DNA of 41,369 bases from Psammoneis japonica (GCA_008632985.1 QPGO01000165.1:124001-165369), one strand, 5' to 3'. Counted from the first letter of the stretch, positions 12,030 through 35,759 are shown. Numbers and translations are program-made. The notes: generated by a model not told the origin, from the letters alone.

Positions 12030-13730
12030 AACTTCACCTTTCATTCCTGCTGAACAGGGTCCTTCTGTTCAATGGAATTCCCAGCCATCACAACGTGCAG
12101 CAGTCATTTGGAGAAAAACAGTCATCAGATCTTTTTGGGGCATCTCACTGCCTGCTGTTATAAAGAACATCTTAGCTGACCCCAACACCATGAAGAAAGT
12201 GGGAGCCTTTGTTGTTGTTGCTGCTCTGGTGGTCTTTTACGCTGCTGCCATGTGTGGAACAATCCTCAGGGTGGTGTTGACAAAGAGTCCTTGTGCAATT
12301 TCCACTCCAATCAACAATGCCAAAACCTGCAGCAGGACATTGATCATGAGGATGACTGGGAACCTCTTGTTGGACACTGAAAAGGCACTCTGGGTGCGCC
12401 ACCCAGATTGGAGCTGCACCTCATGATTCATGTCTTGCCCATTTCTGGACAAGCCTTTGTGTGCAGTCTTGATCAGGGAGGTCAATTCATCCCCACCACG
12501 GCAACACAGTTCACAATCTAGACACCAATGAGATTCATTTCTTTGTTGACACCATGGATGGTGTGCACATTGGAAAGCCTGATGATGCAACTGGAAATGT
12601 GAGGATGGGAACATGGAAGCAACATGGCAGAAGCATGTCTCTAGATTGTGGTCATTGTGATCTGCCTGACAAGGAGATGAGCGTTCCTCATGAGACTCAG
12701 TTTGCAGTGGAAAAAACAGTGACAGGAGATCCAGAGATGATTTTTAGAATGGAAGGCTGTTGGCACGGCTACCCAGACAATGATGGCTCTGACCGAGATG
12801 TGCCATGTCCTCCACTGTTGGTCATCATTCAAATGGAAAAGTCAGATGACAATGTTGTGGAACCAAAGCTGTTTCTTCCCAATCTGAGTCACCTGCCAGT
12901 GCCAGCAGTGACTCAATTTTTCAAGGCACACTGGATGAAAAGGCAATGACTGGCACTGTCAAGTGTGACAGTGCAGATGCAGCATTGGCCTTGACCTTGT
13001 TGTGGAGCAATGATCATCCTAAACATGTGTTGGCAGAACAGTTTCCAAAGGAAATTGTCAACCAAGCAAAGACAATCTCACCACACTGTGCTGCAAACAG
13101 AGGTCAATCTCACCACTGTGTGGAGTCACACTGCAAATGGAGCACACATTCTTGACTGGCAGATGCATTTGGACCAATGGGCTTGACAAAACAAACTAAG
13201 AACAAAGTCAAGAACAACTCAAAGGACTGTTGTTGACTGGCTGACAAAGAAGCCAACCATGCTGGATGCCACACATGACTCCCATGTCATTTTCTTGTCT
13301 GAAAACCCGCACACAAAACCTCTTGTGCCAGCAAAGAAATGCATGACACCCTCTCAGCTTGTGCACAGCTTGAGGACACCTGGGAATGGAGACAAAAGGA
13401 TTTGCTTGTGGTGGACAGATGCAGTTGAGCAAAAACAATTTGGGCCCCAGCAAGTGAAAAGATGATTTAAACAGAAGGTTTTCATGCGTGCTGGTGAGAT
13501 GTGGTGGGATGACAAACAACACAGCACCAATCAGTGCAAGCAACAATGAATGTCTGGCAAGCATGCAAAGGCAGACAATTCAAAGTTTGCTGTTTGTTTG
13601 AAACAAAGCTAAAGCAATGGTTTCATCCTCCTGGAACAAACCAATGATGCCACTTTCTTTTTCTTCTAGCCTCCCTAAAACTGCCACTTTCTTTTTCTTC
13701 CAGCCTCCCTGAAGCCAAACAGATCTGGCT
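12030..13730 (+). pseudogene. Decayed multicopy gene (copy B) with an N-terminal hydrophobic anchor; function unknown
   Basis: ATG at 12190 begins MKKVGAFVVVAALVVFYAAAM; coding-like fragments follow (12554-12949 and onward). Colinear with 18560-20580 and, at its 3' end, with 1-553. Confidence 0.75.
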
Positions 13731-13829
13731 TTTCACAAAGCAAGGAGCAAACAATCCCCACCCTGGACATGTCTGCTCTCCTGTTCCCCACTTTGGCCAA
13801 GACATGGGCCCAGAACACTGGATGACTGT

Positions 13830-14340
13830 TGTCCTGTTTCAAAAGTTGTTGCCAATGTGCTTCCATCAACACTGAGACTGTGGCTTGATGACCCATCAGA
13901 CTTGCTTTGTCCAATGCTGTTTCTCCCCCCACATCTTTGGCATGTCCACATTGTCTCCTTTGTCCAGCAGCAGTCTGGCAACACTTTCACTGCCTGAAAC
14001 ACCTTTTTGCTTCTGACACTTGAAGCACAATGAAGAGCCGTGCCACCCAAGGAGGCTGACTTCAAATCAACGTTGGCACCATTTTGCAGTGGAAACATGC
14101 ACACATCATCACACCCATTCATCAAAGCAATGTGCAACAGTGTCAAACCACTGCTGTCAGCTTTGTCGTTGACTGCTGTGCCGTGCGATGCAAGCATGCA
14201 AGCCATGGACACATCAAGCATCCAAATGCATGCCAGGTGCAAGAGTGTTGGTCCACATGACCAATCTGTCACACACGCTCCAGCATCCAGCAAGAGTTGC
14301 ACTTTTGCATCTCAGTTGGCTGTGTCATGATGAGCAACAA
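13830..14340 (-). pseudogene. Ankyrin-repeat protein pseudogene
   Basis: QLLLDAGA, GPTLLHLAC, GLTLLHIALMNGCDDVCMFPLQNGANVD, GGTALHCAS and, after a frameshift, GGETALDKASLMGHQATVSVL: about four ankyrin repeats. Confidence 0.85.
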
Positions 14341-18559: not shown

Positions 18560-20580
18560 ATCTTCATGATCCTCAGCTGCTGTCATGCTTGGGTCTTTCT
18601 GTTCAATGGAGTTCCCAACCATCAAAATGCACCACACTTGCTTGGAGAGAAACAGCCCATCAGATCTGTTTGGGGCATCTAGCTTCTTGTTCTGCTGGAG
18701 TTCTTCTGAAGAACATCTCTGCTCTTTGCTGACAAACACCATGAAGAAAGTGGGAGTTTTTGTTGTTGTTGCTGCTCCAACGGCAGTCTTGTGTGCTGCC
18801 ACCATGTGGAACAATCCTCAGAATGGCATCAACAGAAAGTCCTTGTGCAATTTCTGATCCAATCAAAAAGACCAAAACCTGCAGCAGGACAATGATCATG
18901 AGAATGACTGGGAACCTCTTGTTGGATGCTGGAAAGGCACTCTGAGTGTGCCACCCAGTTTAGAGTTGCACATCATTTTTTGTGTCTTGCCTGTTTTTGG
19001 ACAAGACTTCATGCACAGTCTTGATCAGGGAGGACAACTGAGTTCATCCCTGCCATGGCAACATGGTTCAATCCAGACACCAACGGGATTCATGTCTTTG
19101 TTGATGCCATCAACGGTGTCTACATTGGAAAGCTTGACAATGTGGCCAAAAACAAAATGACGGGAACATGGCAGCAGCGTGGCAGAAGCATGTCTCTAGA
19201 TTGTGATCATTGCAACCCACCAAACAAGGAGATGAGTGTTCCTCATGCAACTCAATTTGCTGCAGAAAAGCAGCGATGCAATTGTTGAAATGGAAGGCTG
19301 TTGGCACGGCTGCCTGGATGATGACACCTGTGACAGAGATGCACCATGTCTTCCACTGTTGGTTGTGATTCAAGACGGGTTCCAGTCCCAGGTGGGACTC
19401 CGTGTGACATTGGGCCCGTAGAATTCTACGTGCGAGCTCCGTAGTACGAGAATTTAATTAATGAACATATTTATCTTAGACATCAAATAAACGGCCAAGT
19501 TTGTGGTACAATTATGCCTGTTGCCACTCGACGTTTTTGCAAATGCGCCTGCCCTACGCGATTCTTAAGACATTATAGAATCGCGCTGTAGCAAAAAATG
19601 TCAAAAGTTGTTGGACGGATCGCTCAATAAGTGTACCGTAAAATGACACAAAATATCGAAAAAATCACGTAGAAATGTACGTGCGCGACATACGACGTGA
19701 TTCAAAAAACTATCGATGTCACAGTTCAGCAGTACGAGGTCCCACCTAGACCTGGAACGCGTCTCAAACAGAAAAGTTGGACGACAATGTTGTGGAACCC
19801 AAGCTGTTTCTTCCTGATCAGAGTCACCTGCCCGTGCCAATTTGGTCCTTTCTGATTGATGTTGACCAGGTCAAAATTGTGCATGATGGCAGTGACTAGA
19901 TTTTCCAAGACACTCTGGGTGAAAAGACAATGATTGGCGCTGTCAAGTGCAACAACATGGATGCAGCATCTGCCTTGACCCATTTGTTGGCGGAACACTT
20001 TCCAAGCAAAGTTGAGGACTGAGCAACAGCAATCTCACCAAATCATGTGCTGCAAAGAGAGGTCAAACTTGCCACTGCGTGCAATCACACTGCAAACAGA
20101 GCTCACGTCCTTGACTTGCAAATGCATTTAAACCAACAGGATTGGCAAAATGAACAAAGTGCAAAATGACTGTCATCAACTGGCCAACAAAGCCTGCCAT
20201 GCTAGAAGCCACACAAGGCCCAACGTCATTTTTCTGCCAGAAACCAGAAACCCCACGTGCTGAAACCTCTTTTGTGCCAGCCAGGAAAATCACAAAGTGT
20301 TTGAGGGTGGACACACCTTGAGGTCTCAGTTTTGCATGTGATGGATGGATGCAGTTGAGCAAATCAAGTTCAAAACAAAGTTTTTTGACAGCAAGACAAA
20401 CAGCACAGTAGAAGTGCAGTTCAGTGTTGGTTTGAACATCTGGCAAACATGTCATGCACACAATCAAAGTTCATTGTTTTTGCAAAACAAAGCCACAGCA
20501 ACTGTCTCACATCCCTGGAACAAAGCTGTCTGGTCGCTTTCTTTTTCTTCCGGTTTTCCTGCAGCTGAACAGATCTGGCA
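18560..20580 (+). pseudogene. Decayed multicopy gene (copy C), interrupted by a MITE
   Basis: ATGAAGAAAGTGGGAG at 18741 and downstream sequence are colinear with copy B (12030-13730). The insertion 19374-19763 is absent from copy B. Confidence 0.8.
19374..19763. mobile_element. Young 390-bp MITE (family GAC-1), 4-bp TSD TCAA
   Basis: TIR GACGGGTTCCAGTCCCAGGTGGGAC versus the reverse complement of the right end, GACGCGTTCCAGGTCTAGGTGGGAC. TCAA at 19370-19373 and 19764-19767. Paralogous empty site with a single TCAA at 12829-12832. Retains TpA and CpG. Confidence 0.95.
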
Positions 20581-21091
20581 TTGACTTTTGTCAGAGCTCA
20601 AATGGTCGAAAGGAATCTTTCACATGAATTGTCAAAAATCATCATCATCACCATGAATGACCATGACATTCAGTGCCCTTGACGGCTCACTTGTTCCAAC
20701 CTTTTGGCAACACAAATGACACCATTGGAGTGGCAATCATTTGGTTTGTCATGATGGGGTCCCAATGCCAACATGAGTCACTCATGGTTGACTTGTGGTT
20801 GATTTTAGACATGGCAAGACTGCTCAGTGGCTTCTTCCAAACATTGACCATGGTGAACCCTTGTGGCAGAAACTGGGAAGAAACAACATTTCCATTGAGT
20901 CCTCCACATTGTTCATTTTGGCCATGCACGCCTCTAGTTTTGCCTCAGCCTTCAATCTGGACTCCTTGTGGTTCACTTTTGTGGTGACACGACACAAGGA
21001 CAATCCTTGTTTGCCAAATGATCTGTTGACATTCTGCTCACAAGCTGCCACAATTCATCTAATCTTTTATGATGCAGGTCAACATCGGTGC

Positions 21092-21647
21092 GACGTGTTC
21101 AAGTCCCAGGTGACGCACAAAACGACAATCGATTTTGAATATAAATTATGTATCCTCTAGTGTATGGAGCATTTTCATATAAAATACTTAAACGAATTGG
21201 CTTTTATTGGCCTCAAGAGCATGGGCATTTAATTAGTTTTTTGTGGGGTATTCAAGTCCTCATGGGATATGTATCATAAACTTCCTCAGTAGACTCAATT
21301 CTGATTGTACGTCAGTACATTTAATACTGCGATTACTTTGTAGGTAGAAAAATTACCAAGAAGCATCGTATAAAGATATATTTAGATAACGTCCAAATAA
21401 CGGCAGTAATTTCGCCGAAAATCATCCGTTGTGTTACGATTCGTTTAACGCAATGAAAAACATAAATGGCACAATAACAATGATTTTGCAACACTCACAC
21501 GAGTCTTGTTAGTGTTGCAAAACATACGAATTTGTATAAATCTATACTTTTGGTGGTGAAAATTCGTTCGTAAGTCAGAGACCGCGCAAAAATCGCGCAA
21601 ATGTCGTTTTTGTGCACGATTTGGGTCACGTGCGGCTGGAACACGTC
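21092..21647. mobile_element. Young 556-bp MITE (family GAC-2), 4-bp TSD GTGC
   Basis: Ends GACGTGTTCAAG... and ...CTGGAACACGTC. GTGC at 21088-21091 and 21648-21651. TpA-rich interior; homologous to 25553-26128. Confidence 0.93.
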
Positions 21648-22809
21648 GTGCATGTCATCGAATGCTTTGAATGGTGTGATGAAAGTGATTCACAAAAGTC
21701 ATCATAGAAGGGACTCGAAAGCGCTGTTGCATGTCTTGCATTTTTGCAGTGGAGATTCTGTCTCATTTGTGTCATGGCATAAAATCTGAACAGTCGTCTT
21801 GTGACTCGGTCTCATGCTGTGCAAAAAGACATGAAGTTGGTGCTCATGACCCAATGAATTTGTGTCTCTGATTGATGTTGCACTGCTGGTCATCTTCTGG
21901 GTCTGTTGATTGTGGCCTGTGTTGCGCCATTTCTGTGGTTCTGTGGGTCATCATTTGGCTCTTTCAAGACATGACTGCAATGTCTGTCTCTTGTGTGCTC
22001 CACATTTTTTTGCACAGCTGTGACTCTCACCACTGCCTTTTGCACCAGAAGACCCACAATCCTGTTTTTTCCAGGCTTTTGATTTTCCCAGTGGGGGTGG
22101 GGGTGGGGGGCATTGGTGGAGAGAGGTCATTCCTGCACAGACAGTGGATCACTCTCAGCATGTTTTAAATGATCATTCAAAAATGTTGCATCAGTCACAA
22201 GTGTGAAGCCAAAACAACTTTACAAGAACTCAATTGAAGTGTCCTCTGATCAACTGTGTTTTGATTTGCATGGTGAAGAGCAATGCCTTTGATTGGACAA
22301 CATTTCAACTGATTTCTTGAGAAGTTGACATTCAGATGTAGATGGACAGACAAACTGATGACAGCTGTTCTTGTTGCCCGTGGGGCTGTTCCACACAATT
22401 TCCACAAAATGACTCTCAGAGAGCCCCAGTGATTCCTGTTGGGTGCTTTTGTTGCACTGCTGGCACTTGTGGCAGTTGGAGCCTTTGTGAAGCTGATGCA
22501 TGCGGTGATTGGAGCCTCTTTGTCACACTGAATGACAGCCAAAGCAGCCAACTTCACATTGAAAATGACATGCCAAAGTTGCCATGTTGCAGCAAGCCCT
22601 TGAAAGCAGGAGCGCAGAAGCTGTTTTTGGTTTTGGGGTTGTCTCAGCCAGCAGCACATCATCAACCCCATCCAATGAGTTGCCAAATGGGCAAAGCCTG
22701 GCTGCAATGTGAGCTTTCTTGCTTGCTTGTTGGCCCCACTGGCTGTTCTTCCAAGTCTGGGGATCTTTGAGACAAGGGCTCTCTCTGACACTGCTTTGCA
22801 CAGTCAAGC

Positions 22810-23255
22810 TGCTCTCAATTTCTTGGATGACTTTTTCATCAGCAATGTCAAGGCAGCCATCAAATCTCAAACACTTCATGCTCAGTGGCAAATTAGCAAC
22901 ATTGCAAAGAAGGTTCCCAAAGATGGGGTCATTTGGAGTTCATGTTCTCCTGATGACAAGGACAATTTTCTCAAAAATGGAGCTCAATTTCTTGGATGAC
23001 TTTGTCATCAGCAATGCCAAGGCAGTCATCAAATCTCAAACACTTTGTGCTCAGTGGCAAAGGCATCATTCGTCACATGAACGAGAGCTCTCAGTCCATC
23101 CTTGCAGTCCATTTTGAGCATCAGCCACTGAAGGAAAGATGAGAGATGGTGAGACTCTCAATCAGCAACATTGCAAAGAAGGTTCCCAAAGATGGGATCA
23201 TTTGGAGTTCATGTTCACAAGATGACAAGGACAATTCTCAAGTGGAGCTCAAATT
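22810..23255. repeat. Local tandem duplication with an internal indel
   Basis: CTCAATTTCTTGGATGACTTT...GCTCAGTGGCAAA occurs at ~22814 and ~22983. AGCAACATTGCAAAGAAGGTTCCCAAAGATGGG...GGAGCTCAA occurs at ~22895 and ~23164. Confidence 0.9.
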
Positions 23256-23473
23256 CAGAAAATGGATGAAAGAGTCAAGCAATGCACACATGGAACAAGA
23301 GTGCTCAAACATGTCACAACAAAATGTGTCAGATTGTCTGTGCTTGGCTGGAATTGAAACAACTGACATTGCCCCCCACTCAAGCAAGAAAGCAATGAAC
23401 GGATTGGAGACATTTAAAAAGCAGGACAGAGAGTGATGGTGCACTTGCTCATGATCCCCAAGCACTGTTGTTG

Positions 23474-24960
23474 TCAGCAGCAAAATGTTTTGCAGTGAGC
23501 ACAGTTTAGCGTCATTTTCTGTTGATCAGTCAGCTGGTTTGAGAGCCACAAATTGGTGCCTTTTTCCAAGAATGAGTCCAGTGTGTGATGCTCCAGCTCT
23601 TTCTTGCACTTGTTGAGATGCCTTTTGTGTTCCTGCAATTTGTGGGGGTGATTTCCAAAAACCAATGTGTGCGTTGTCAGCAGTTTGGGGTGTTTGGGAC
23701 CAAGTTCCACATGAACACCAACACAGACACAGTCCGGCACTTCCATTCCCTGTGGCACTGCATCGTCATCATTGGCAATCCTCAAGTGAGCAACTCTTCC
23801 CATTTCTTGCAGCTTGACAAAGGTGTCTGCAAATTGTGCCTTGCCAACATGCGGCAAAGCAAGTGCAATGAGATGAGTCTTTTTGTCAATGCTGTTGCTC
23901 ACTGCCATGGGAGTTGCTGCCATGGCAGCCATGGCACCTCCCAAACTGTGACCTGCAAAACAAAGAGAATGCCCCTTGTGCCTTGGATCCTTGAGAAAAG
24001 TCAAAATCTCATGAACAATCTTGCTGCACTTGATCTCTCTGTTGTTGCCTTCTGGTTCAAACAAGTGCTGGTAAAAACCACAATGACTGTGATGTCAGTT
24101 CAACAAGCAACAAATGAGTGGCATCACTGCAAGATGGGAAATCAGCAAGAACAAAGCACATTGTGAACAACAGATTCTCTCCACATGCATGTGAGACTCA
24201 CATGGCGACATTGTCAAAATCATTCAGCACATCCGCAGGATTTGGAATGATTGCCAACTCCTTGAGCGTGTGGTGAATGTCTTGTTCATGGGCCTTGAAA
24301 TCTTGTCCCCAATCTCTCATGTTGGTGCTTCCCCAAAAGGCAATGGTCAGTTGCTTTGGTGCAGGACTCCTTGCCATCCCATGGATGGGTCTCGATTGTC
24401 ATCTGTGAAATCTAAGCTGGTCGTCCAACACTTCGTGTGTTGCTTCTTCATCTTCTTTTGAATTGGAGTTTTTATTGACAAGGTGCTGCAAAATTTCTAA
24501 ATCAAACTCGGGGTTGCATTTGCAAAGCAATTTCCATCTGGATTTTTTCAACCAGTCCATGTTGTGTTTGAGCCACTCCAACATTTCCAGTGCCATTCTT
24601 GGAGTTGTGCAAAAGAAATTAGGATCGTCAAGTGCACTCTTTCCATCAACAAGGTTGCTCCAATTGTTGAAGAGTGCAAAATCTTGAATCAGACAGGACA
24701 CTGCAAGCACCATTTGCACTTCACTGAAAAGCAAACGTTTTTCTTGTTGTGAATTGTCATCAACACTCTGTTGTAAATTGTCATGAGTTTCTGCCAAACA
24801 AGTTGTCGTTTCATCAACATTGGCGTTGTTGTTGCACTCCTCAACTGCATGTGCGGATTCCATTGGTGTGAAAAGCAATGAAAACAGGAGAAGTGCAAGC
24901 AGGCCCACTGGTGGAAACCACTGGTGCCCATTGGTCGTGGGCATTGTGCATGGTGGCATG
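23474..24960 (-). pseudogene. Class-3 lipase (alpha/beta hydrolase) pseudogene with a signal-peptide-like N-terminus and one intron
   Basis: Hydrophobic GLLALLLFSLLF near the start; IAFWGSTNMRDWGQDF (family VAFRGT...DW..D). A GTGAGT...CAG intron at 24087-24201 splices to NVAIHCGFYQHLF (HxGF motif). Nucleophile elbow FAGHSLGGAMA, LPHVG (PRVG) and RIANDDDAVP follow. Confidence 0.88.
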
Positions 24961-25552
24961 TGTGTCTTGGTTCTTTGACAGACTTGAAGACTGGGGAAGT
25001 CTCCAGCCATGCCAGTTTTGTTGCATCGCGTGGCAACAATTGTTTTTGACAACATTCATGAATGTGAGCCAAAACAACCAATCACATTGATGATGACATC
25101 AAAGTTGCCACATTGCAGTGTTTGAAATTTTGAACAAGAAACAATGCCAGCCAATCAAAAAGTGCACGTTGTGTCCACACGATGACTTGCGCAGGCTCTG
25201 CGCATGCCAGCTCCCATTGTAAAATTTTGAGCACGTGTCAAAATTTTGACATTTCAAGATGGTGGGGTCAACCAGCAGCAGCAACACCGTGAATGACACA
25301 CAACAGTCATGGTGCAGTGGCATCAACAGCGAATTGGCTCTGCCACTGCAGTTGCCATCTCCGTTGACTGCACCAAACAACAACAACAGATTGATGCAAC
25401 AAGAGCTGATGATGATGCACCCATTGGCTGCCACAGCATCAGCACCAGGCTCCACATTGAACCAGTTTCCAGCACCCACCGCTCCCATGACACAATCTCA
25501 TGCCTCATCCCTTTGCAGCTCAGAGCCAACAACTCTTGGCGGCCACATCCTT

Positions 25553-26128
25553 GACATGTTCCAGTTCCCCAGGGGATGCACAAAACGACAATCCGTTTTG
25601 AGCACAAATCATGCATCTCTTGTGTGCAGCATTTGAGCACAAAATGCTTGGGCGGGTGGGCTTTCACAGGTGTCTAGAGTGTGAACATCCAAATGGTTTT
25701 TTTGTTGGCACTCAACTCCTCATGGGACATGCATCACAAACTTCCTCTGCAGACTCAACACTGGTTCTGTGTCAGCACACTTTACACTGAGATTTCTTTT
25801 CAGGTGGAAAACCCACCAATGTCATCGCAGAAAGATGTGTTTGGGCAACATCCAAACAACGGCAACAATTTTGCCAAAAATCATCCATCGTGTTGCAAAA
25901 ATCATCTGTTGTGTTGCGGCTCATTTGTCGCAATGAAAAACACAGATGGCACAATGACAATGGCATTGCAACACTCACGCGAGTCTTGTCAGTGTTGCAA
26001 AACATTCAAATTTGGATGAATCCTTGCTTTTGGTGGCAAAAGCTCGTTTGTGAGTGAGAGACCACACAAAAATCACACGAATGTTGTTTTTGTGCATGAC
26101 TTGGGTCACATGCCAGCTGAAACATGTC
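25553..26128. mobile_element. Old hypermutated 576-bp MITE (family GAC-2), 4-bp TSD CCTT
   Basis: Ends GACATGTTCCAG... and ...CTGAAACATGTC. CCTT at 25549-25552 and 26129-26132. Colinear with 21092-21647, with TA and CG replaced by CA/TG. Confidence 0.92.
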
Positions 26129-26820
26129 CCTTGCTAAATGGGGCTCCTGGCCCACTCCTGTGGACAGCAACATGTTTCAACTGGCACGTGACAGATTTCT
26201 GCATGATTTCTGCATCCCTTGCACAAATTGCGCAGCCCTGCGGTGCAAATTGTCTGCCTGCCACCCCAGTCATTTGAGCTTCATTGTTCAGCTTCACGCC
26301 GCCAATCCAAAACAACACTCATCTGTCCATCTCTTTCATCTGGGAAGCTGGTTGACAGAAGAGACAAGAAAGGTCTCTTTTGCAGCTTTTGCTCTCTTGG
26401 CAATTAATTGGTTGGTTGTGAAAGCTTGTTTGTGAGTGAGAGACCGTGCAAAAACAACACAAATGTCATTTTTGTGCACGATTTGGGTCACTTGCCGGCT
26501 GGAACACGTCCCTTGCTGAGTGGGACTCCTGGCCCACTCCTGCAGACCGCAACATTTTTTAACTGGCTCGCGACAGATTTCTGCATGATTTCTGTCCCTC
26601 GCACAAATCGCGCAGCCCTGCGGCACAAATCGTCTGTCCACCACCCCAATTGTTTGAACTTCATTGTTCAACTTCATTGTTCAGCTTCACACCCGCTCAC
26701 TGTCTGGGTCTGCCAATCCAAAACAACATTCATGGGTCCATCTCTTTCATCTGGGAAGCTGATTGACAGAAGAGACAAGAAAGGTCTCTTTCATGGCTTT
26801 TGCTCTCTTGACAATCAATT
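26039..26820. repeat. Tandem duplication (~380-bp period) covering the MITE right end plus flank
   Basis: AAGCTCGTTTGTGAGTGAGAGACC...TCTCTTTCATCTGGGAAGCTG...TTTTGCTCTCTTG occurs at ~26039-26408 and ~26421-26820. The second unit carries a solo MITE end, GGAACACGTC|CCTT. Confidence 0.92.
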
Positions 26821-27309
26821 GAAATGTAAAGTGTGACGATTCAGGAAACTCGGTGCAAGTCAACACCGCAGGATTGAAGTCAAAAAGGAGGTCCGAAAGA
26901 CAACAAAACAAACAAAGAGCTGAGCCCAGTCTAAGAGAGAGTCATGATAAAACTGCAAAAAGATGCCAGCTTGATTCCTGAACAAAGGTGGCTAGATGCA
27001 AAAAATTGACACTGCTCATTGTGTGGAGTGTGCTGTGTGCTGAGTGATGAAACCCTGGCCAGTCGCACAATGCTTTGCACCTCCGACAAGAACAGTTTGT
27101 GACATGCAGTTTGCCTTGGTCTGGATGTGGAACATGAAGTGAAGGATCCACTTGTTGTGAGTGCGTGGAAGATCTCTCATGAACTCTGCCACCAACCTCT
27201 TTCAAAGCCAAGCATTGCAAAAAGATTGGCTTGTTCAAACGTCCCAATGTTTCCCCACCTGTCAACATTCCTTGAAACCAATTGATCCACCATGAATGAT
27301 GTTGTTTTA

Positions 27310-27515
27310 AACTGCACACCTTTCAGCTCTTGCTGACACCACTGCGAGAAATGAAAAAAAATCTTGTCAAACAGATCAGGGTGTCCCTTGTGTTGGCAGA
27401 TGCAGAGAGGTCTTCTCAAAACCCTTTGTCCCTGTTTGACAAAAGAAATTTCTTGCAATGCCGCACAGTTTGCCAGAGAACTCACACTCCCAACAAATGC
27501 GTGATCCGTGAGCTC
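27310..27515 (-). pseudogene. 1,3-beta-glucan (callose) synthase GT48 gene fragment
   Basis: DHAFVGSVSSLANCAALQEISFVKQGQRVLRRPLCICQHKGHPDLFDKIFF, then frameshifted ISRSGVSKS. Matches the GT48 core EHIFTGSVSSLA..MA.QE.SFVT.GQRVL..PL..R.HYGHPD.FD..F..TRGGVSK. Confidence 0.88.
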
Positions 27516-28062
27516 CACTGCTTGTGTCATCAACACACTCCAAAAAGTGAAGTGCGAGGCCCTTTTGTGGGGAAGAATCTGCGTGAAGACCAAGAAACAA
27601 ACAGAGTGAAGTGCTGGACTGCTGACGTCCGTTGAAAACACACCCACCATGAGCCGCGACGTCCAGAGCTTGCCTCGAACACTCCAAAGGTGCCCCACAC
27701 ATCAGATCCTTTCATCTGTGTTTGTTGTGAAACGAGTTGTGCACAGGTCAAGGGATGAGACGAGGGAAATGACAACAAACTCAACAAAACACACCGGAAC
27801 GGCAACAACAGCAGCACACTCACACACTGAAGGAAACAAAATCGACATTCTTGTGCGGAGCGGCACTTGTCAAAACAGCGCCAACACGCAATGGCACTGC
27901 AGGCAAATGCCAACAACATGCCGAGTGACTCACCTTGTGAAAAACGGTGACAACGACGGTGGACGCGACACAAATTTGCCGTGGTGGCTGCGCAAATTCT
28001 GCGTAGAATTTCTCGCTTTTTACCAGGAGCTAAAAAATTCGCACGGTGTGATTTTTTTTACA

Positions 28063-29038
28063 AGGTGGCACGGGTGCAAAAGTGTGCCAGATTCTACGTG
28101 CGCAGAGGTTTGCATGTTTTCTGCACAATCGCCAAAGTCACCTCGCCAACTTGAACCCTCTCCGAGATGATGGAAACCTGGACTTTTCACTTGACAAAGT
28201 GTTTGGAGCATTTCATCACACACATGTTGACTTGTTCATTGGGAGAAACTACAAGTTTTCATACATTCGTCGTTCATCAGAGCTTTCTAAATCTCGAACA
28301 TCAAGATTTTAGTGCCTTTCTGATTAGATTCGTCACATGTCTTCAGACACATGTGGAAACTTGTTGTTTCTCCCCACAAACAAGTCAAGGGGAGTGCAAA
28401 CAAGTCCTCAAAACACTCTGTCATGTGAAATGTTCAAGTTTCCATCGTCCGGGAGAGGTTTCAATGACTTTGGCGATTTGTGTAGAAAACACACTAAGTT
28501 CTGCACACCGTAAAATCTGGCCCACTTTTGTTCCCGCACATGCCACCCGTGGCACGGGCACAAAAGTGGGGCAGATTCTACGTGCGTGGAATTTAGTGCA
28601 TTTTCTACACAAATCGCCAAAGTCAACTCGCCAACTTGAACCCTCTCCCGGACGATGGAAACTTGAACATTTCACATGACAAGGTGTCCAGACTGCATGA
28701 TTGCACTCTTCTTGACTTGTTCATGGAGAGAAACTACAAGTTTCCACACGTTTTTGACGATGTGCACCGAATCTCATCAGAAAGGTGCCAAAATCACGAC
28801 GTTCGAGTTTGTCAGAGCTGCAGCAAACAAAGAATGTATGGAAACTTGCAGTTTCTCTCCACAAACAAGTCGAGGAGAGTGTGTTTGGGCAGTCTGGACA
28901 CTTTGTCATGTGAAATGTTCAAGTTTCCATCGTCCGGGAGAGGGTTCAAGTTGGCGAGGTGACTTTGGCGATTTGTGCAGAAAACACGCTAAGTTCTGCG
29001 CACGCAGAATCTGGCCCACTTTTGCACCCGCACCACCT
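28063..29038. mobile_element. Two abutting ~490-bp foldback MITE-like elements (28063-28547 and 28548-29038), each with ~200-bp TIRs
   Basis: Arm GGTGGCACGGGTGCAAAAGTG..CAGATTCTACGTGCG...ATCGCCAAAGTCA...GATGGAAAC...GAGAAACTACAAGTTT appears forward at ~28064 and ~28548 and reverse-complemented ending at 28547 and 29037. No TSD identified. Confidence 0.88.
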
Positions 29039-29399
29039 CGAGGGGGTCATTTGCTGCTTTTTTTTAGCTGACAGCTCGTGATTTGCATGATTTTTCCTGA
29101 ATTTCACCGTGCTTCACCGTGGTGAAAACATCAAGCCACAAGTCTGTGATGGAGGTGGGCCGTGCATCAACTCTCATTTGTTTTGTGTTCGTTGTGTGTC
29201 AAAGGTCACCTGCACATCAAATGTTTGCACACAGACCACTGCACTTTGGACTTGTGTTGACGTCACCGTCATGGTTGTGCTTTGATCATGGTGGCTGATG
29301 TTCTCATTTTCGTGCATGATCGGGGTGAATGTGAGTGATTTTTGTGTTCAAAAACAAACACCACAAATGTCCTCACTCAAATGCAACGGCAATTCTGGG

Positions 29400-30075
29400 G
29401 ATGGGCTCCAGTCCTGGGTGGGACTCTGTGTGACACATTCAGCCCGCAGAGTTCTGCATGCAAGCTCTGCAGTGCGAGAATTTAACCAATGGACATTTTC
29501 ATCTTCAACATCAAACAAACGGCCAAGTTTGTGGCACATTTGTGCCCATTCACACTCGATGCGTTCCAGCTCTGGGTGGGACCTCACACTGCTGACCTGT
29601 GACAAAATGTTTCAAAAATGTGCTGGGTGCATTCTTCAATGTCTGAAAAACACACCCGGGAATGACACAAACAATGCACTTCAAGTGTGAAGGAGGAGAT
29701 GCGTTCGCAAAATTGCCTCTTTTTCTGTTGGCGATCATTTGCATTTCAATTGCTGAACAATTTCACCACAGAGCTCGCACGCAGAATTCTATGGGCCAAA
29801 TGTCACAAAAAGTCCCACCTGGGACTGGAACCAATCACTCAAAGTTTTTGGAAATCTGCCTGCCCTGCGCCATTCTTAAGACATTTGCAAATGGCGCAGA
29901 AGAAAAAATGTCAAGAGTTGTTGAATGGATGGCCCAACAATTGTGCCACAAAATGACATGAAATTCCACCAAAGTCATGCAGACACGCACGTGTGCGTGA
30001 CATGCGGCATGATCCAAAAAACCATCGATGTCACAGTTCAGTGGCACGAGGTCCCACCTGGAGCTGGAACATGTC
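29400..30075. mobile_element. Old hypermutated MITE (family GAC-1), 4-bp TSD TGGG, containing a nested relative
   Basis: Ends GATGGGCTCCAGTCCTGGGTGGGAC... and ...GTCCCACCTGGAGCTGGAACATGTC. TGGG at 29396-29399 and 30076-30079. After removing 29558-29840 it is colinear with 19374-19763. Confidence 0.93.
29558..29836 (-). mobile_element. 279-bp GAC-1-related MITE nested in inverted orientation, 4-bp TSD ACTC
   Basis: Starts GATGCGTTCCAGCTCTGGGTGGGACCTC (reverse complement of the GAC-1 right end) and ends GTCCCACCTGGGACTGGAACCAATC. ACTC at 29554-29557 and 29837-29840; a single ACTC is at the matching site (~19526) of the young copy. Confidence 0.92.
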
Positions 30076-30639
30076 TGGGACAAACGCAGGGATGACCCGC
30101 CTTGAGGCAATCACAGAACCGTGTGCCAGATTGCAAGACGACTCACCTTTCTGATTTTTTTTGCACTGGAAACTTTGTGTGCGCCACACGCATCATTGCG
30201 AAAAATGGGTTGTCGCAATGACAGCAACAACAGCGACGTGTCCTCGACTGTTTGAGCATCACAGTCATTTGGTTTGTTGACTGTGAGAATGCACTCAGTC
30301 ATGAAAGTCCCCGGGTGAAGCCTCCATTCAAAAGCAAAACATCACGCCAATGCCAAGCTCTGTTTTTCAACCATCGTTTGATGCATTCGATCATGGAACA
30401 ATTGAGAGTTCATCCGGGGGACTTTCTTGATGCACTCGTGTTCCAAGGAGTGTCGCTGACAGCAAAATCCTTCTCCAGGAGCATTGCAAACGTGTTGTCG
30501 TCATTGTCAGTGTTGAGCGGCAATTTGTCAAGCAAATCGTGAATGTGGCACAACCGTCATCGCTGTCTGACATTTTGCCACTGTGTGCAACTCCTGCACA
30601 TGCCTCAAGCTGTGCCAGCTAGCCTGGCAGGTGCAGGGA

Positions 30640-31175
30640 CATGTTGCGATCCATGGGAGGTCTTCTCTTTCCCTCTTCCACACCACTCAAAGACCTCCCA
30701 GTTGGGAGTGCTTGCTCACTCCTGGATGGCCATCCCACATTTCCCGCTGATGCATGCACTGCATGCATTGAGACGATGGCGGGTGCTCGCTCATTTGCGC
30801 CATGCATTGCCAGGGCATTGTTTGAGCCGGATTTTGTCAACTTTCACACAATGCAATGCGATCACCTGTGTCATGTGAGAATCGGATCTCAAAGATCCAA
30901 AAGACATCTTGGAAGCCTGACTCAGAATTGTTTGTCTCAGCTGACTCAGGCAGACTTCGAGTGCAGGCACCGGCAGCGAACGAGTGCACGACAACACTCT
31001 TTGCAATTTTGCCTCAAGCACAGCACATCCACCTTTAGAATCACATGCACTGCAGTGCTGGCATGGTGCACTAACATGGGTTCATCTCTTTCACGAGGAA
31101 AGTTAATTGACAGGCGTGATGAAGAAGGACACTTCCATTCTTTCTATTGTCTCCAGACAACGGTCGAGTGCACCG
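30640..31175 (+). pseudogene. Decayed coding relic of an unknown multicopy family, homologous to ~26700-26835
   Basis: MGSSLSRGKLIDRRDEEGHFHSFYCL (~31075-31155) versus MGPSLSSGKLIDRRDKKGLFHGFCSL (~26730-26810) and a frameshifted copy at ~26320-26400. Confidence 0.55.
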
Positions 31176-31180
31176 ACAGC

Positions 31181-32085
31181 ATGGGAAAAACGGCGCATGT
31201 AGATACGAAATCTTTGACCGCCAGTGTACGCCGCCGAGTGAAGCGAAGCACAACAGCCTATTCCAACAGTTCAGCCGCCCACCATTCAACAACCTCAGCA
31301 GCAACCCATTCTCATTCAACAACCTCAGCCTCTATTCTTGCTGTTCAAGACCGCCCACTCGTTCCTCCTATATACAATGGCGTCAATCCCAACTATCCCG
31401 GCGTCACCATGGTGCACGGATCGCCTCCCATTTTTTCGGTCGAGAATTTTTTGACACCGCACGAGTGTGATTTTTGGTCGAGAATTTTTTGACACCGCAC
31501 GAGTGTGATTTTCTCATTGCGGCCGCATCCGATTCCTTTACCCCCGCACCCGTGGTGGGCAAGGGCAGTGGCGAAATCTCGCCGTCGCGAACCTCCTCGA
31601 CTTGTTATTTAGCACGCGAGGATGTTCCAGACTTGATGCGCAAAGTGACAGTGCTCACGGGCAAACCCGTGCACACGTGCGAATTGCCCCAAGTGGGACG
31701 GTACGAACCGACGCAACAATATTTACAACACTTTGACGCGTTTGATGTTTCCACGGAAGATGGATTGCGGTTTGCCACCAATAGTGGACAACGGACCGTG
31801 ACCGTGACCGTGCTGATTTATCTCAATGATGTTGCCAACGGAGGTGATGCACGATTTCCCTTGTTGGATCTCAATGTACAGCCTCGCAAGTGCATGGCTC
31901 TTGTCTTTTTCCCAGCCACCATTAATGGGCTCTTGGAAAAAATGGCCTTGCATGCGGCACTACCGGCGGTCGATACCAAGTTTGTTAGTCAAATGTGGAT
32001 TCGACAAGCCGAATACAAGGGACAACCCTCCAAGCGACTGGACACCATAATGGGGGTGTTGTTTGGACAAGAGGTGATGAATTAG
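31181..32085 (+). pseudogene. Prolyl 4-hydroxylase (2OG-Fe(II) dioxygenase), frameshifted by a 38-bp tandem duplication
   Basis: PPIFSVENFLTPHECDFLI, SRTSST, ELPQVGRY...QYLQHFDAF (HxD), GQRT..VLIYLNDVANGG, ALHAALP and KFVSQMWIRQ. The likely ATG at 31181 is out of frame with the catalytic domain because 31438-31475 is repeated from 31476. There is also an extra ACCGTG repeat at ~31795-31812. Normal dinucleotide composition. Confidence 0.85.
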
Positions 32086-32335
32086 AACGTGAAGAAGAGA
32101 GAAGCCAGTGTCATGTGGTTTTGGTGTTTAGAAAATGCTCCGTCGGCTACAGTTTTGGAGCTCTCGTTCATTCTGGACGAGATTAGTGTATAGTTTTTAG
32201 AGCTTTCGATCGCGGTTTCAACAGACTTTCAAGTGCTGAATTTCTGGAGAAAGACGCAACTTCGAGCAAGTAGCAAAATATCTCATAACTGTAACAACAA
32301 GCTTGATTAGTAAAGTTCGCATGCATTATCTTCCA

Positions 32336-35300
32336 TCACATGTCCATCCACGCTTGCGGAAACAAATGGTCTGGTATGCCAATTTCGTGTCGAAACGCGG
32401 ATTGTACAAACATATCGGACGTGTATTCGTCATCCACAAACTCAATGGTTCGCCGCGGAACGTCGTTACGATCCAATCGTCATTAGGGGTGCGATGCACA
32501 CGAACCACGTACACATCTTGCGGTGGAACAGTGGTGTCCGCTAGATACGGATCGCCCTCATGACGATGCAGCACTTGACAACGGTAGGCATCTTGCGTTC
32601 CAGTGCTGTACAAATGCGGAGAGTATTCCCACTTGCACTCATTGTCGTGTTTGCCCGTCCGAGTTTGCTTTTCGTCCAAATTGCCCACATAACAAATGGT
32701 TTGAAAGTTTTCGGGATATGGATCCGCTTCTTGTTCCTCGAGTGTCTTGACTGGAACGTAAAAGTCATTGTGCTCGGCCGCCGAAACGTACTCATCATCA
32801 TCATTGGGTCGCCAGTTTTGCAAATGCGTATTCCACGCATCCTCCGATTGCTGGCCATAATCCAAAAACACTTCTTCACCCTCTTGAATGTCACGGGTGG
32901 CAACCACTTCCATAATGACACCCGCGCGGTTTTCGCTCATTAGCTCCTCTACCGGTCGATCCAGCCAATCGGCCTGATTGGGCAGCTTGGATTACCGGCG
33001 TAATTCGGCATTGAATTCCGGGTGATGATGATTCAAGTAATTTGTCACGGGCGTGTATGGAAAGAGCAACAAGTTTGACTTGGGGTGGCCATAACAATAA
33101 TTGAGCAAGAGCTGTTGGCCTATCGTACACTTGCATGTGTCGACGATGCAATTGAACAAAGGGCAACGGAGCAATGATGCTGCCCTGTGCAAACGAGTCG
33201 CAAAGGCTCCCTTTCCAGCCTGTGGGAGCGTGGACGTGTCGGGGCGGATATTGTCAAGACAGACACCATTCTCCTCGAGCCATTCGGGTGAAGGCACCGC
33301 GTTTGGTACCGAGTGGAGGGCCGTGCCCTTCTTTACCACCTCTTGTACGTGAGACAACTCCCTGGGCAACGCCAAGCGGACGCGATTGCCATCATTCTTC
33401 GAATCCGTCTCATTGTACCAGAGCAATGACCACAAGTCATTGGCAAATTCCGTGTTGGGATTGTGATCAATGAGATCCCAAAATTTACGCAAATCCTTGT
33501 CGGCGTTTCTGAAATCATAACTCAAGGGAATCACACCCAACTTTTCGGCTCGGTCCTTAAACCACGTGTCTCCGTATTGCACAAAGAGTTCCATTCCAGC
33601 CTGAATGTGATTCTCCGCCGTGTACCTTACTCCATGATAGGTTGTGGAAGCACCCGTTCCAGGATCCTTGCTTCGCTCCATACCCATGGTGTCTACATGG
33701 GGTGGACGCATAAAGGCACTGACCAAGCCCGTGTGGCTATTGGCAAGCATGCCCAGGCCCGGCACTATGGATTGTACGTCATCTGCCTCGAATTCTCCAC
33801 CAGTCGTATCGGGATCCCAGTAATAGCTATGCATCAACCAATCGGGTTCCGTGTTTCTACCAATAAACTGTTTTTTGTCTTTCCATCGACGCAATTTTTG
33901 GTTGAGTTCGATATCTTCCACTTGCACCACTACGTCGGAATGGAAAATGTCGCTCTTCTCTGGAATTTCCACAGCCGTGTACATTCCCATGCCTGCGTTG
34001 GGAATGGACGATTCCGCCACATACAATTGACACGACAAAGCTTCTTTTTCTTGTTTGCTTTTTTGTTCCAAATCACGCCACGACGGGGGAATCATGTCAT
34101 TGGGTAATTCCAAGTAATGACGAAAGGCATTTCGTAAATACGAATCATTGGTATAGGGCAAATCGACAATGACAAGTGCCTGACGAGGTATACCATGAAC
34201 GACCTTTTCCGTCCACTCGTCATTGTCTTCCTCTTGCTTGTAACGAATGCGTGATGTATAGGTATTGTGCTTAGCATTGCGTTCCAACACGGTACACTCG
34301 TCCGTTTCATCCGTGTGACGATAATAGACCATGTCGGATTCTAAATCGTCCGATATGACCCAAGTGTATTCTCCATTGGTGTCGTCTGTTGAATCCTCCA
34401 ATTCATCAAACCAACAACGTGTTTCGACATTTGCGGGATATGCCGGCTGCTCGTCTTGAATGGTTCGAATGTGACGTTCCTGGTTAAAGACAGCTGCCGG
34501 TATGTAGTCTTGCGGTGATGAGCGTGGTGCCTTGCCGTAGTCCTGGACATGCTTGTCCCAAGATTCTTGCCAATCGTTACCATAATCCACCAGAATCTCG
34601 TCTCCCTTGGAAATATCGCTCGTGGCGACAAGTTCCATCATGAGTCCTGTTTTCTTGTTGTTTTCTAAAACTTGTGTGCTGGTCCAATTCAACCATTCCG
34701 GATGAGATTGACGAGAGGACCAACGAAGTTTGACATTGGCCGTCTTGTTGTCGCTACTTCCGTGATTGATTGTGTTTGTGGCGGATGCATAGGGATAAAA
34801 CACCAACGATGTAGACGGATGGCCATAGACATAATTGTACAAGAGTTGATGACCACGGTGATAAACCTTTTCTTCATCATGTTCATCAACGACCCACAAA
34901 TCCAAATGACTACGATGCAAATGAATCAAGGGTGCTGGCGTCACGACGGTGCCCTTCTGTAAATCACGAGACGCAAAGGCACCCTTGCCGGCACCGTCAA
35001 TGGTAGATTCCTTGACAGTCATGTGATCCAGACACAATCCATTTTCTTGCAACCACGCTTGGGATCGAATGACATTGGGTACCGTAAGCATGGCGGTACT
35101 ACCCTTGAGGTGAAACCAAACATGATGTGCGTCTTGATAGGTTTTGGGCAATGCCCGTTTGATGCGTGGACTGACATCGTCCCGCTCCTCAATCTCCTCA
35201 CGCCATGCATCCCAATGTCCTTGTCGTGATCCACCCACAAAATAATCACGCAACCACTTGTCGGCAATTTCAAAGTCACCACTGAGTGGCAAATCGTTTC

Positions 35301-35412
35301 CAAAAATTTCATTTCGTTCTTAAAACCATCCATCACCGTACATGGCAAAGAGTTCCATACCCGCCGGTATATTTTGATTGGCTTGAAAGGTCAATTCCGT
35401 ATTGTACGTAAA
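32336..35412 (-). pseudogene. 5'-truncated multi-SET-like-domain protein gene with stops and frameshifts
   Basis: Repeated SET-like signatures: STIDGAGKGAFASRDL...INH...ATSDISKGDEILVDYG; SSIPNAGMGMYT...LANSH...IQAGMELFVQYG; STLPQAGKGAFATR...LNH...ATRDIQEGEEVFLDYG. In-frame TAA at 35320-35322 and 32992-32994. Paired frameshifts at ~33120-33195. A frameshift at ~32463 hides the true C-terminus VPRRTIEFVDDEYTSD...AFRHEIGIPDHLFPQAWMDM* (stop 32336-32338), which mirrors the internal repeat end. Confidence 0.85.
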
Positions 35413-35759
35413 TGCTCCCGCTTGTGGAGTTGTTCTGCTGTGCCAACAAATGACAAACACGAGCTTGAGGAGGCTTGTGTGCAATTTTGCAGCTGTGGCA
35501 TTGGGGGTGCCAATGACATGAGCTCCTGCCAGCTCCAACCTTGGCCCATGGTTTTTGAAACACTGGTGTCTCTTGCTCAGCTGTGAAAAGCTGTGGCATG
35601 TGGGGTCATGCAGCCCAGGAGCCAGGCTGCCTGCACTCCTTTTTGCAGATGGTGCAAAGCGCTGTTGTGACTGCACAAGGAGGGCAATTCTTGTGGTTGT
35701 GCCAGTGTTCTGAAGGTCTGGGTGTGCCCCTGGGAAGCTGCACATGAAGAGCTCAGCAT

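Follow-up and report, generated by a model that had tools for sequence, protein, structure and literature searches.

Within the window, that is, the whole stretch of 41,369 nucleotides analyzed, the families GAC-1 and GAC-2 consist of small non-autonomous DNA transposons (MITEs) with common ends, GAC..GTTCCAG. Comparing their copies shows cleanly what DNA looks like before and after an unusual rewriting process. The young GAC-1 copy, in the 'before' state, spans 390 bp on the plus strand (19374..19763), has inverted terminal repeats with ends GACGGGTTCCAG and GACGCGTTCCAG, and lies between the target-site duplications TCAA at 19370..19373 and 19764-19767 (flanks ATTCAA and TCAAAC). The young GAC-2 copy, also in the 'before' state, spans 556 bp on the same strand (21092..21647), with GTGC duplicated at 21088-21091 and 21648-21651 (flanks CGGTGC and GTGCAT). 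The 'after' state is represented by an old GAC-2 copy (25553..26128, plus strand; CCTT at 25549-25552 and 26129-26132), which matches 21092-21647 in self-BLAST with 73.6% identity over 580 columns, and by an old GAC-1 copy in two plus-strand parts, 29400..29557 and 29837..30075 (TGGG at 29396-29399 and 30076-30079). For the latter, self-BLAST aligns 29400-29559 with 19374-19531 at 80% identity and 29836-30076 with 19525-19764 at 78%. Between the two parts lies a nested GAC-1 copy on the minus strand (29558..29836, duplication ACTC), inverted and internally deleted, which gives inverted matches to both ends of the young GAC-1. The right end of the old GAC-2 is duplicated at 26412..26510 (plus strand), within a tandem duplicate (26412-26821) of 26030-26410. 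The element limits given in the initial annotation were recovered by self-BLAST, and the eight strings it quoted are all present, at 19415, 29443, 19505, 29533, 21264, 25724, 21139 and 25602.

The assignment to MITEs is in line with the small size (390 and 556 bp), the lack of coding capacity and the many copies of both families. All five insertions have a 4-bp target-site duplication, and the terminal inverted repeats match at 21 of 25 positions in GAC-1 and 40 of 45 in GAC-2. The terminal motif common to both families occurs 15 times in the window against 3.28 expected, eleven of these occurrences being accounted for by the termini of the five copies plus the duplicated end. No ORF of at least 120 aa lies inside either young copy, one ORF overlaps GAC-2 over its first 69 bp only, and no transposase domain was found among the 45 window ORFs scanned. 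Summed contig depth, which is not equivalent to copy number, is 3e3-3.7e5 on the families (1.1e5-3.7e5 on the young GAC-1) versus about 45 on the flank.

The gene zone at 30900..35500 serves as an unmutated control, with TA at 0.4-0.67 and CG at about 1 of expectation, whereas TA is 0.03-0.1 elsewhere in the window. It holds a SET-domain gene (32326-35319, minus strand; Pfam SET, 6.9e-11) and a 2OG-Fe(II) oxygenase ORF (31471-32085, plus strand; Pfam 2OG-FeII_Oxy_3, PF13640, 2.1e-8). Depletion apparently extends to all non-genic DNA in the window, beyond recognizable repeats, and this restriction to non-genic DNA is a direct observation. Two tandem fold-back units with four arms (28063..29038) are in an intermediate state (TA 0.2-0.29, CG 0.76-0.81 of expectation), with 16 CA-versus-TG conflicts among the arms. 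In the bins at 27501 and 30001, TA is 0.0 and CG about 0.8 of expectation, so TA can be lost without CG decaying in step.

The young copies are compositionally unbiased. Observed over expected counts are 27/29.8 for TA and 29/19.2 for CG in GAC-1, and 45/55.1 and 29/19.0 in GAC-2, placing TA at 0.82-0.91 and CA+TG at 1.0-1.16 of expectation. In the host DNA on either side of and between them, TA counts are 2/28.6, 8/101.3 and 2/28.4; the old GAC-1, the nest and the old GAC-2 present 2/26.6, 1/20.1 and 2/44.7. The young copies are thus unmutated inside a heavily mutated, nearly TA-free host, as had been claimed, and being located there is not enough to set off editing at once.

The before/after difference between young and old copies is confirmed by dinucleotide counts over three young/old alignments, with the old side limited to two full copies and two fragments. 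Among 71 young TA sites, the old copies present CA at 35, TG at 22, TT at 6, TA at 2, GA at 2, four other dinucleotides once each, and CG at none. Among 58 young CG sites, 19 are still CG, 18 are CA, 15 are TG and 6 are other. CA is unchanged at 51 of 63 sites and TG at 47 of 61. Transitions affect 58 of 143 bases at TA sites (41%) versus 43 of 423 other A/T sites (10%; Fisher odds ratio 6.0, p=1.8e-14), and 33 of 113 at CG sites versus 15 of 253 other G/C sites (odds ratio 6.5, p=1.1e-8). The context dependence is therefore read directly from the alignments: the A-to-G rate is 0.41 after T (58/143) versus 0.08-0.11 after A (22/194), C (10/125) and G (11/104), and the C-to-T rate is 0.29 before G (33/113) versus 0.04-0.10 before A (6/121), C (6/60) and T (3/72). 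The alignment and context count proposed in the initial annotation thus bear out a per-site excess at TA. Its statement that most differences are TA or CG changing to CA or TG holds as a strong enrichment at those sites but not as a majority, such transitions making up 91 of 205 differences (44%). Substitutions of any kind at TA or CG sites amount to 110 of 205 (54%), at sites that are 256 of 932 (27%). Some of the non-TA differences between copies may be subfamily differences.

In total, 69 of 71 TA and 39 of 58 CG dinucleotides were lost, while other sites show 58 transitions and 37 transversions in 676. By copy, the losses are 44/44 TA and 20/28 CG among the aligned dinucleotides of the old GAC-2, 25/27 and 19/30 in the whole old GAC-1, and 4/5 and 6/9 in the nest ends, where other transitions number 1 in 95 sites. 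From these loss counts, the rate of TA loss works out at about 3 times that of CG loss and at no less than about 20 times that of background transitions, a minimum estimate given that TA is saturated.

TA loss also depends on the flanking bases. The 175 TAs surviving in depleted DNA comprise 90 YTAR, 78 mixed and 7 RTAY sites, versus 33, 109 and 82 among 224 reference TAs (Fisher p=4e-23). In the young/old comparison, the kept TAs are 2 among 12 YTAR sites, 0 among 34 mixed and 0 among 25 RTAY. At mixed sites the change fell on the T-A-Y half-site 19 times and on the other half-site 9 times, which is only suggestive of a half-site preference. No strand-coordinated pattern was detected, CA and TG outcomes being interleaved (runs tests, P=0.41-0.88), nor was a locus-level strand bias in any old paralog pair. 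Runs would be expected from a processive single-strand deaminase, but saturation may have wiped them out.

That the young copies represent the state before the change, which accumulates after insertion and is not intrinsic to the element, had been proposed and is supported by recency, structural age, polarity and composition. Of the contigs in the public set X1, one of 1399 bases and single-copy depth (45) joins 19373 to 19772, and one of depth 50 connects 21087 with 21648, with 4 letters in common. Given these exact empty sites, both young insertions are polymorphic or hemizygous. An older copy of the host repeat carries the corresponding paralogous site, without the young GAC-1 insertion, at 12829..12832: 12057-12832 matches 18591-19373, 12829-12904 matches 19764-19839, and 12829-12832 belongs to both BLAST segments. 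The old copies are structurally old, GAC-1 because it contains a nested insertion that has a separate 4-bp duplication, and GAC-2 because its right end was tandemly duplicated along with the flank. Direction is also read directly from sites at which the three GAC-1 copies present TA, CA and TG, for which parsimony allows only TA as ancestor; direct polarity for TA comes from 3 such sites and the remainder is indirect. A CG/CA/TG pattern is found at 7 sites. Among old paralogs, including the tandem duplicate, 66 of 85 adjacent double-transition differences are CA-versus-TG conflicts, with the seven other classes together making up 19. The tandem copies 26030-26410 and 26412-26821 differ at 51 of 379 positions, with 43 transitions and 9 CA-versus-TG conflicts, and these differences are changes made in place after the duplication. 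Among 4026 contig pieces matching the young copies, 481 do so at 99% or more, 1075 at 95-99%, 1537 at 90-95% and 933 below 90%. Since the old copies are saturated, slow accumulation and bursts look alike.

The reading we favor, with a probability of about 0.68, is rewriting in place by enzymatic TpA editing of silenced DNA together with slower CpG decay, both ending at CA/TG. A fresh copy would land in non-genic DNA and then be rewritten there by two context-specific transition processes. The faster would remove TpA by an A:T-to-G:C change, giving TG when one strand is altered and CA when the other is; a site would cease to be a target once one base is altered, as indicated by no TA having become CG. 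This process would favor the half-site T-A-pyrimidine, so that RTAY sites go first and YTAR sites linger, and would leave live genes and the short intergenic spacer alone. The slower process would be ordinary CpG decay to TG/CA, as expected from methylated-cytosine deamination. We infer that TpA removal is the work of an enzyme whose editing is directed at silenced DNA, most likely a deaminase that acts on adenine in DNA. CpG decay co-located with TpA loss points to one compartment, presumably methylated.

It is unlikely, though with some evidence on its side, that there is no targeting at all, and that a genome-wide neutral bias against TA and CG acts everywhere, with genes kept by purifying selection and the MITE pairs serving merely as a clock. 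The breadth of the depletion across non-genic DNA would suit such a bias, as would the continuous range of contig-piece similarity to the young copies and the live genes themselves, where TA is about 0.5 and CA is raised to 1.85 at the codon 3-1 boundary; a weak genome-wide pressure on TA may exist. Yet the live SET ORF retains TA at its largely silent phases, 2-3 and 3-1 (0.51 and 0.52 of expectation), as much as at the protected phase 1-2 (0.54), and the 240-bp spacer between the SET and oxygenase genes still has TA at 12/20.7 and CG at 11/9.9. A pressure at least 20 times background would have emptied both. The bins without TA but with CG near 0.8 also count against it. In a lipase-like relic, TA by codon phase is 0.08, 0.08 and 0.00 of expectation. 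A change starting from thymine is rather improbable: the T of TpA would be modified or oxidized (e.g., to a 5-substituted uracil) and mispair with G, giving T-to-C. Given TA is self-complementary, A-to-G on one strand is indistinguishable from T-to-C on the other, and the flank preference can just as well be written from the thymine strand, as R-T-A. However, nothing in the window supports thymine modification, and PF13640, the domain of the neighboring oxygenase ORF, is presumably of the prolyl-hydroxylase type rather than the base-modifying type. Adenine deamination is moreover favored, in the main text, by the authors of bioRxiv 10.64898/2026.01.13.699255.

The two other alternatives have very little probability. 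One reverses the direction, with the CA/TG-rich state as ancestral and the 'young' copies having gained TA and CG through a RIP-like C-to-T change at CpA. A two-copy comparison is symmetric in itself, and by old-copy context 110 of 149 transitions fall at CA/TG sites. Nevertheless, it is the TA-rich copies that are the polymorphic, recent insertions; they are unbiased, whereas a RIP-like process would leave a TA excess; CG is not creatable by C-to-T; and both the three-state sites and the predominance of CA-versus-TG conflicts among old paralogs are opposed to it. The other holds that a base modification in repeat DNA causes TA sites to be systematically read with a C or G in error when the DNA is sequenced or assembled, which is scarcely credible given that the host sequence without TA is reproduced by the independent X1 contigs, with 9 letters differing in about 1.38 kb. 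A context-driven miscall would also not make two paralogs differ, one with CA and one with TG, at a shared position, and the relic ORFs show a loss of tyrosine and a gain of His/Cys.

Enzymatic TpA editing with CpG decay can be compared with several known systems. RIP, in Neurospora and other fungi, changes C to T mainly at CpA, creating TpA, and depends on homology and premeiotic timing. As in RIP, transposon and duplicated DNA is here inactivated in place by dense context-specific transitions while genes are spared, but the outcome is opposite, with TpA destroyed and CpA/TpG created. The RIP direction itself, with its TpA excess, was rejected on the old copies' TA counts (2/26.6 and 2/44.7) and on C-to-T before A (6/121). 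The young copies, whose families have a very high summed contig depth (which is not copy number), are untouched. CpG decay results from deamination of 5-methylcytosine in methylated transposons. The CG part of the change resembles it, being concentrated at CpG and confined to non-genic DNA, with gene-zone CG near 1; CpG decay covers that part only, while TA loss is faster and runs to completion. Diatom transposons are described as methylated (PMC9998398).

As to deaminases, the change resembles the activity of TadA and the adenine base editors, A-to-G with a 5' T. TadA, a tRNA adenosine deaminase with the natural substrate U-A-C-G, is the parent of the engineered editors, the early versions of which preferred Y-A-C, a preference that would fit the T-A-pyrimidine half-site. 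To our knowledge, no natural TadA-like enzyme acts on nuclear DNA as a transposon defense. ADAR, which edits double-stranded RNA from A to G and prefers a 5' U and a 3' G, is similar in its 5' preference. However, it needs an RNA intermediate, whereas the in-place changes here affect cut-and-paste DNA elements and a tandem duplicate, and its 3' preference is opposite to the T and C preferred here. ADAR is mentioned in the discussion of bioRxiv 10.64898/2026.01.13.699255.

That preprint (Mettrop et al.) describes, in its main text, TpA-restricted hypermutation of giant-virus and virophage DNA integrated in Bigelowiella natans, with A-to-G and T-to-C changes only at TpA, yielding TpG/CpA. Affected regions are clustered, with TpA depletion and CpA+TpG enrichment, while ordinary genes are spared; de novo changes arose in some mutation-accumulation lines only, at about 1000-fold the baseline rate, and the authors propose an adenine deaminase (bioRxiv 10.64898/2026.01.13.699255). 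As far as that text goes, the signature found here matches: 57 of 71 TA sites became CA or TG and none CG, CpA/TpG was gained as TpA was depleted, and mobile DNA was affected while ordinary genes were spared. The words 'CpG', 'context', 'flanking' and 'trinucleotide' have 0 occurrences in the main text. According to the same text, B. natans, a chlorarachniophyte rather than a probable diatom as here, has changes seen de novo, while ours are deduced from copies only, and the TpA Rho of its viral region, 0.45, is partial compared with the nearly complete 0.03-0.1 in the window. The affected DNA there also has almost no other type of change, whereas the old copies here additionally show CG decay (39/58) and background changes, which may reflect age rather than a different process. 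Unlike in B. natans, as described there, the DNA affected here comprises DNA transposons, gene relics and nearly all non-genic DNA, and TpA loss is accompanied by CpG decay and by a flank preference under which RTAY is lost and YTAR is kept.

Each of two MITE families, GAC-1 and GAC-2, is present in the window as a young copy (19374-19763 and 21092-21647, respectively) and an old copy (29400-30075 and 25553-26128), which serve as the states before and after mutation. The element limits and coordinates proposed in the initial annotation were reproduced by self-BLAST, and 8/8 of its quoted strings were located. The termini of both families have the form GAC..GTTCCAG, a motif with 15 occurrences against 3.28 expected, 11 of the 15 being ends of the copies discussed here. 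The terminal inverted repeats match at 21 of 25 bases in GAC-1 and at 40 of 45 in GAC-2, and 4-bp target duplications (TCAA, GTGC, TGGG, CCTT and ACTC) accompany all five insertions. Old GAC-1 itself contains a nest, an inverted and internally deleted GAC-1 copy at 29558-29836. A search with nhmmer using both young copies as queries found no additional copies within the window, and BLAST on purine/pyrimidine-recoded sequence returned mostly noise, the old copies being 92-95% alike when transitions are ignored. Two near-matches to the terminal motif, for which a partner end was not found (16481-16492, GATGGGTTCCAA, and 17303-17314, GATGTGCTCCAG, both on the minus strand), could derive from the termini of older, decayed copies. 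A metagenome scan with 20 bases taken from the terminal repeat retrieved seven contigs of 61-64% G+C, which were rejected as GAC-1 relatives given that they have 20-24 exact bases in common with it and nothing else; most likely they carry one conserved bacterial sequence with a chance likeness to the GAC-1 terminal repeat.

Across the window, observed/expected ratios are 0.14 for TpA (TA), 0.37 for CpG (CG), and 1.73 for both CA and TG. In most 500-base bins TA stands at 0.0-0.12 of expectation; the bins escaping this depletion belong to the two young copies, to a gene zone spanning about 30.9-35.5 kb, where TA is 0.4-0.67 and CG about 1 of expectation, and to a few intermediate patches. Fold-back elements of about 485 bp, present in two tandem copies with long inverted arms (28063-29038), are intermediate, with TA at 0.2-0.29 and CG at about 0.8, and a tandem array of units of about 183 bp that are 60-80% alike (2639-4423) has TA at about 0.2. 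The gene zone (30900-35500) holds a SET-domain ORF on the minus strand and a 2OG-Fe(II) oxygenase ORF on the plus strand. The SET-domain protein is the longest real ORF of the window (Pfam 6.9e-11); its best named relative, from Phaeodactylum, shows 44% identity over full coverage, and Bacillariophyta is the commonest phylum in the nearest Atlas clusters. The window is eukaryotic and, on these homologies, probably from a diatom. In all, 90 ORFs of 120 aa or more run from stop to stop in it, and 6 of the 45 ORFs scanned match a Pfam family; long spurious ORFs arise because TAA and TAG stops are almost absent from TA-free DNA.

The young copies retain TA close to expectation (27 observed against 29.8 expected in GAC-1, 45 against 55.1 in GAC-2), and the surrounding DNA has nearly lost it: 2 against 28.6 in the left flank, 8 against 101.3 between the young copies, and 2 against 28.4 in the right flank. 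The old copies resemble these flanks, with 2 against 26.6 in GAC-1, 2 against 44.7 in GAC-2, and 1 against 20.1 in the nest. Three young/old alignments give the fate of each dinucleotide. The 71 young TAs became CA in 35 cases, TG in 22, TT in 6 and GA in 2, with four other outcomes seen once each and 2 TAs unchanged; none became CG. The 58 young CGs yielded 19 CG, 18 CA, 15 TG and 6 others, and 51 of 63 CAs and 47 of 61 TGs were unchanged. Since no TA turned into CG, a change at either base of a TA ends the targeting of its partner, which is what a requirement for an intact TpA step predicts. Counted by dinucleotide context, transitions affected 58/143 TA-site positions versus 43/423 other A/T sites (p=1.8e-14), and 33/113 CG-site positions versus 15/253 other G/C sites (p=1.1e-8). 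When both strands are pooled, the A-to-G rate is 0.41 after a 5' T and 0.08-0.11 after A, C or G, and the C-to-T rate is 0.29 before a 3' G and 0.04-0.10 before other bases. The enrichment described in the initial annotation is thus borne out, yet its statement that most differences are TA or CG transitions is too strong, as these make up 91 of 205 substitutions (44%) on 27% of sites. From the stretch 31075-31138 at the gene-zone margin, 39-64 bases recur at 26320-26383 and 26731-26794, one in each half of a tandem duplicate (26030-26410 and 26412-26821), with TA and CG replaced by TG and CA; this gene fragment was dropped as a third before/after pair because the alignment is too short.

Between young and old copies, 69/71 TA and 39/58 CG dinucleotides were lost, and the 676 remaining sites show 58 transitions and 37 transversions. 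These counts put TA loss at about 3 times the pace of CG loss and at a minimum of about 20 times that of background transitions; saturation of TA makes this a lower bound. At the nest ends, 4/5 TA and 6/9 CG were lost with one other transition in 95 sites, which hints at a much larger ratio, though from few sites. TA is absent from bins 27501 and 30001 and CG there is still at about 0.8, so TA loss and CG decay are not locked together.

Four agreeing lines support TA and CG as the initial state and, as originally proposed, the accumulation of change after insertion. Exact empty sites exist for both young copies: in a public run, a contig of 1399 bases at a depth typical of single-copy DNA (45) passes from 19200-19373 to 19772 onwards without young GAC-1, and a contig at depth 50 leads from 21087 straight to 21648, the two sides having 4 letters in common, and lacks young GAC-2. 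Both insertions are therefore polymorphic or hemizygous. An empty site is also present at 12829-12832, in an older paralog of the host repeat. The old copies, for their part, bear later events, namely the nested insertion and a tandem duplication of element end plus flank. A three-copy comparison gives 3 sites with TA, CA and TG and 7 with CG, CA and TG; the former support TA as ancestral because two steps suffice only from TA. Finally, among adjacent double-transition differences in five pairs of old paralogs, one of which is the tandem duplicate whose halves can have diverged only in place, CA stands opposite TG in 66/85, the seven other classes summing to 19. Scoring the repeats as multi-copy sets gives 52 versus 34, a count that overlaps the former and is not independent of it. 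A reverse direction, i.e., TA gain of the RIP type, is rejected because the young copies are compositionally unbiased, with TA at 0.82-0.91 and CA+TG at 1.0-1.16 of expectation. Genomic copies in contigs, compared with the young reference, present A-to-G 85, T-to-C 66, G-to-A 47, C-to-T 39 and 70 transversions of all kinds, totals over 311 variable places with TA and other sites pooled, and this fits a TA/CG starting state. At 19466, T (TA, between a purine and a pyrimidine) accounts for about 70% of the summed contig depth, and young GAC-1 has C (CA); this C may be an initial hit on that copy or may go back to a variant source copy. Three to four further positions of young GAC-1 are unlike the majority of copies in the contigs.

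The surviving TAs reveal a flank preference. Among 175 survivors outside the young elements and the gene zone, 90 are YTAR (pyrimidine-TA-purine), 78 have mixed flanks and 7 are RTAY (purine-TA-pyrimidine), versus 33, 109 and 82 among 224 reference TAs (Fisher p=4e-23 for RTAY against YTAR). Counted by half-site, the base 3' of the target A among survivors is A 145, G 113, C 64 and T 28 times, versus 104, 71, 143 and 130 in the reference. The before/after pairs kept TA at 2/12 YTAR, 0/34 mixed and 0/25 RTAY sites, and at mixed sites the changed half-site was T-A-pyrimidine in 19 cases versus 9. Creation of new YTAR sites by C-to-T change at pyrimidine-C-A lacks support, as C-to-T shows no 5' preference (0.10-0.16). 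Along the old copies no runs of CA or TG outcomes were found, the two being interleaved (runs tests, P=0.41-0.88), and at conflict sites none of the old paralog pairs is biased towards one strand at the level of the locus; saturation may have erased a strand-coordinated pattern in the old copies.

Taken together, the TpA and CpG changes are context-specific, occur in place after insertion, and are confined to non-genic DNA. In the live SET ORF, TA is at 0.54, 0.51 and 0.52 of expectation in codon phases 1-2, 2-3 and 3-1, respectively, with no drop at positions where most changes would be silent, and between the two genes a 240-base spacer retains 12 TA against 20.7 expected and 11 CG against 9.9. 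Three ORFs with host-type domains lie within TA-free DNA, all on the minus strand: a class 3 lipase (23474-24094, 3.4e-14, with a GHSLGG motif), an ankyrin-repeat ORF (13733-14311, 1.7e-13) and a glucan-synthase fragment (27177-27701, 6.7e-7, below Pfam's cut-off). The lipase-like ORF has 1 tyrosine, 10% His and 5% Cys, and the other two have 0 tyrosines, versus a tyrosine content of 4.3% in the SET protein; all three resemble dead gene copies in which the TA process has rewritten the tyrosine codons. The SET phases, the TA-keeping spacer and the tyrosine loss of these relics count against a uniform neutral bias restrained only by selection, which is unlikely, although a weak genome-wide pressure may also act. 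At the codon 3-1 boundary of live genes, CA is at 1.85. TA erasure and CG decay affect the same DNA, which suggests that the TpA process may be aimed at a methylated or silenced compartment.

As for mechanism, we infer enzymatic editing for the TpA part. Deamination of adenine to inosine in DNA would fit the requirement for a 5' T, and so would the preference for T-A-C that tRNA adenosine deaminases have in common with early base editors. The 3' G preference of ADAR does not fit, and a route through RNA was set aside because it leaves unexplained the cut-and-paste elements and the tandem duplicate diverging in place. Chemistry on the thymine side, which the self-complementarity of TA allows, is a less likely alternative. 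For the CpG part, the simplest reading would be deamination of methylated cytosine; in the species studied, diatom transposons are methylated (PMC9998398). A bolder reading, to which we assign a probability of roughly 30%, is that diatoms may possess a natural DNA adenine editor of the tRNA-deaminase kind with a T-A-pyrimidine preference. It would aim at the silenced, cytosine-methylated compartment of CpG decay as a genome defence akin to RIP but opposite in chemistry, and would strip transposons and dead gene copies of all tyrosine codons and of two of the three stop codons; very recent insertions of currently abundant MITE families, such as the two young copies, would still be unedited.

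TA-free DNA is a trap for gene prediction, as spurious ORFs and tyrosine-free relics can mislead annotation. Unlike bulk dinucleotide statistics, the MITE pairs provide a known starting sequence and a per-site fate table, along with proof of no second hit, rates relative to CpG decay and background, and a flank preference testable on oligonucleotides. In the literature searched, with most subscription journals outside the search, no description of the TpA signature in diatoms was found. The same signature has been reported in integrated viral DNA of Bigelowiella natans, with an adenine deaminase proposed, in a 2026 preprint (Mettrop et al., bioRxiv 10.64898/2026.01.13.699255), whose main text gives no context beyond TpA. 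Newly added here are an internal-control pair with known starting sequence and recency verified by empty alleles, the fate table, the no-second-hit result and relative rates, an independent polarity test from CA versus TG conflicts, and a direct check of flank preference. If enzymatic, the TpA process would be a natural in-vivo A:T-to-G:C DNA editor, an activity known until now chiefly from engineered base editors. Fungal RIP would also gain a second counterpart of opposite chemistry, now in another distant algal lineage, and one may ask how common it is for eukaryotes to defend their genomes by mutation.
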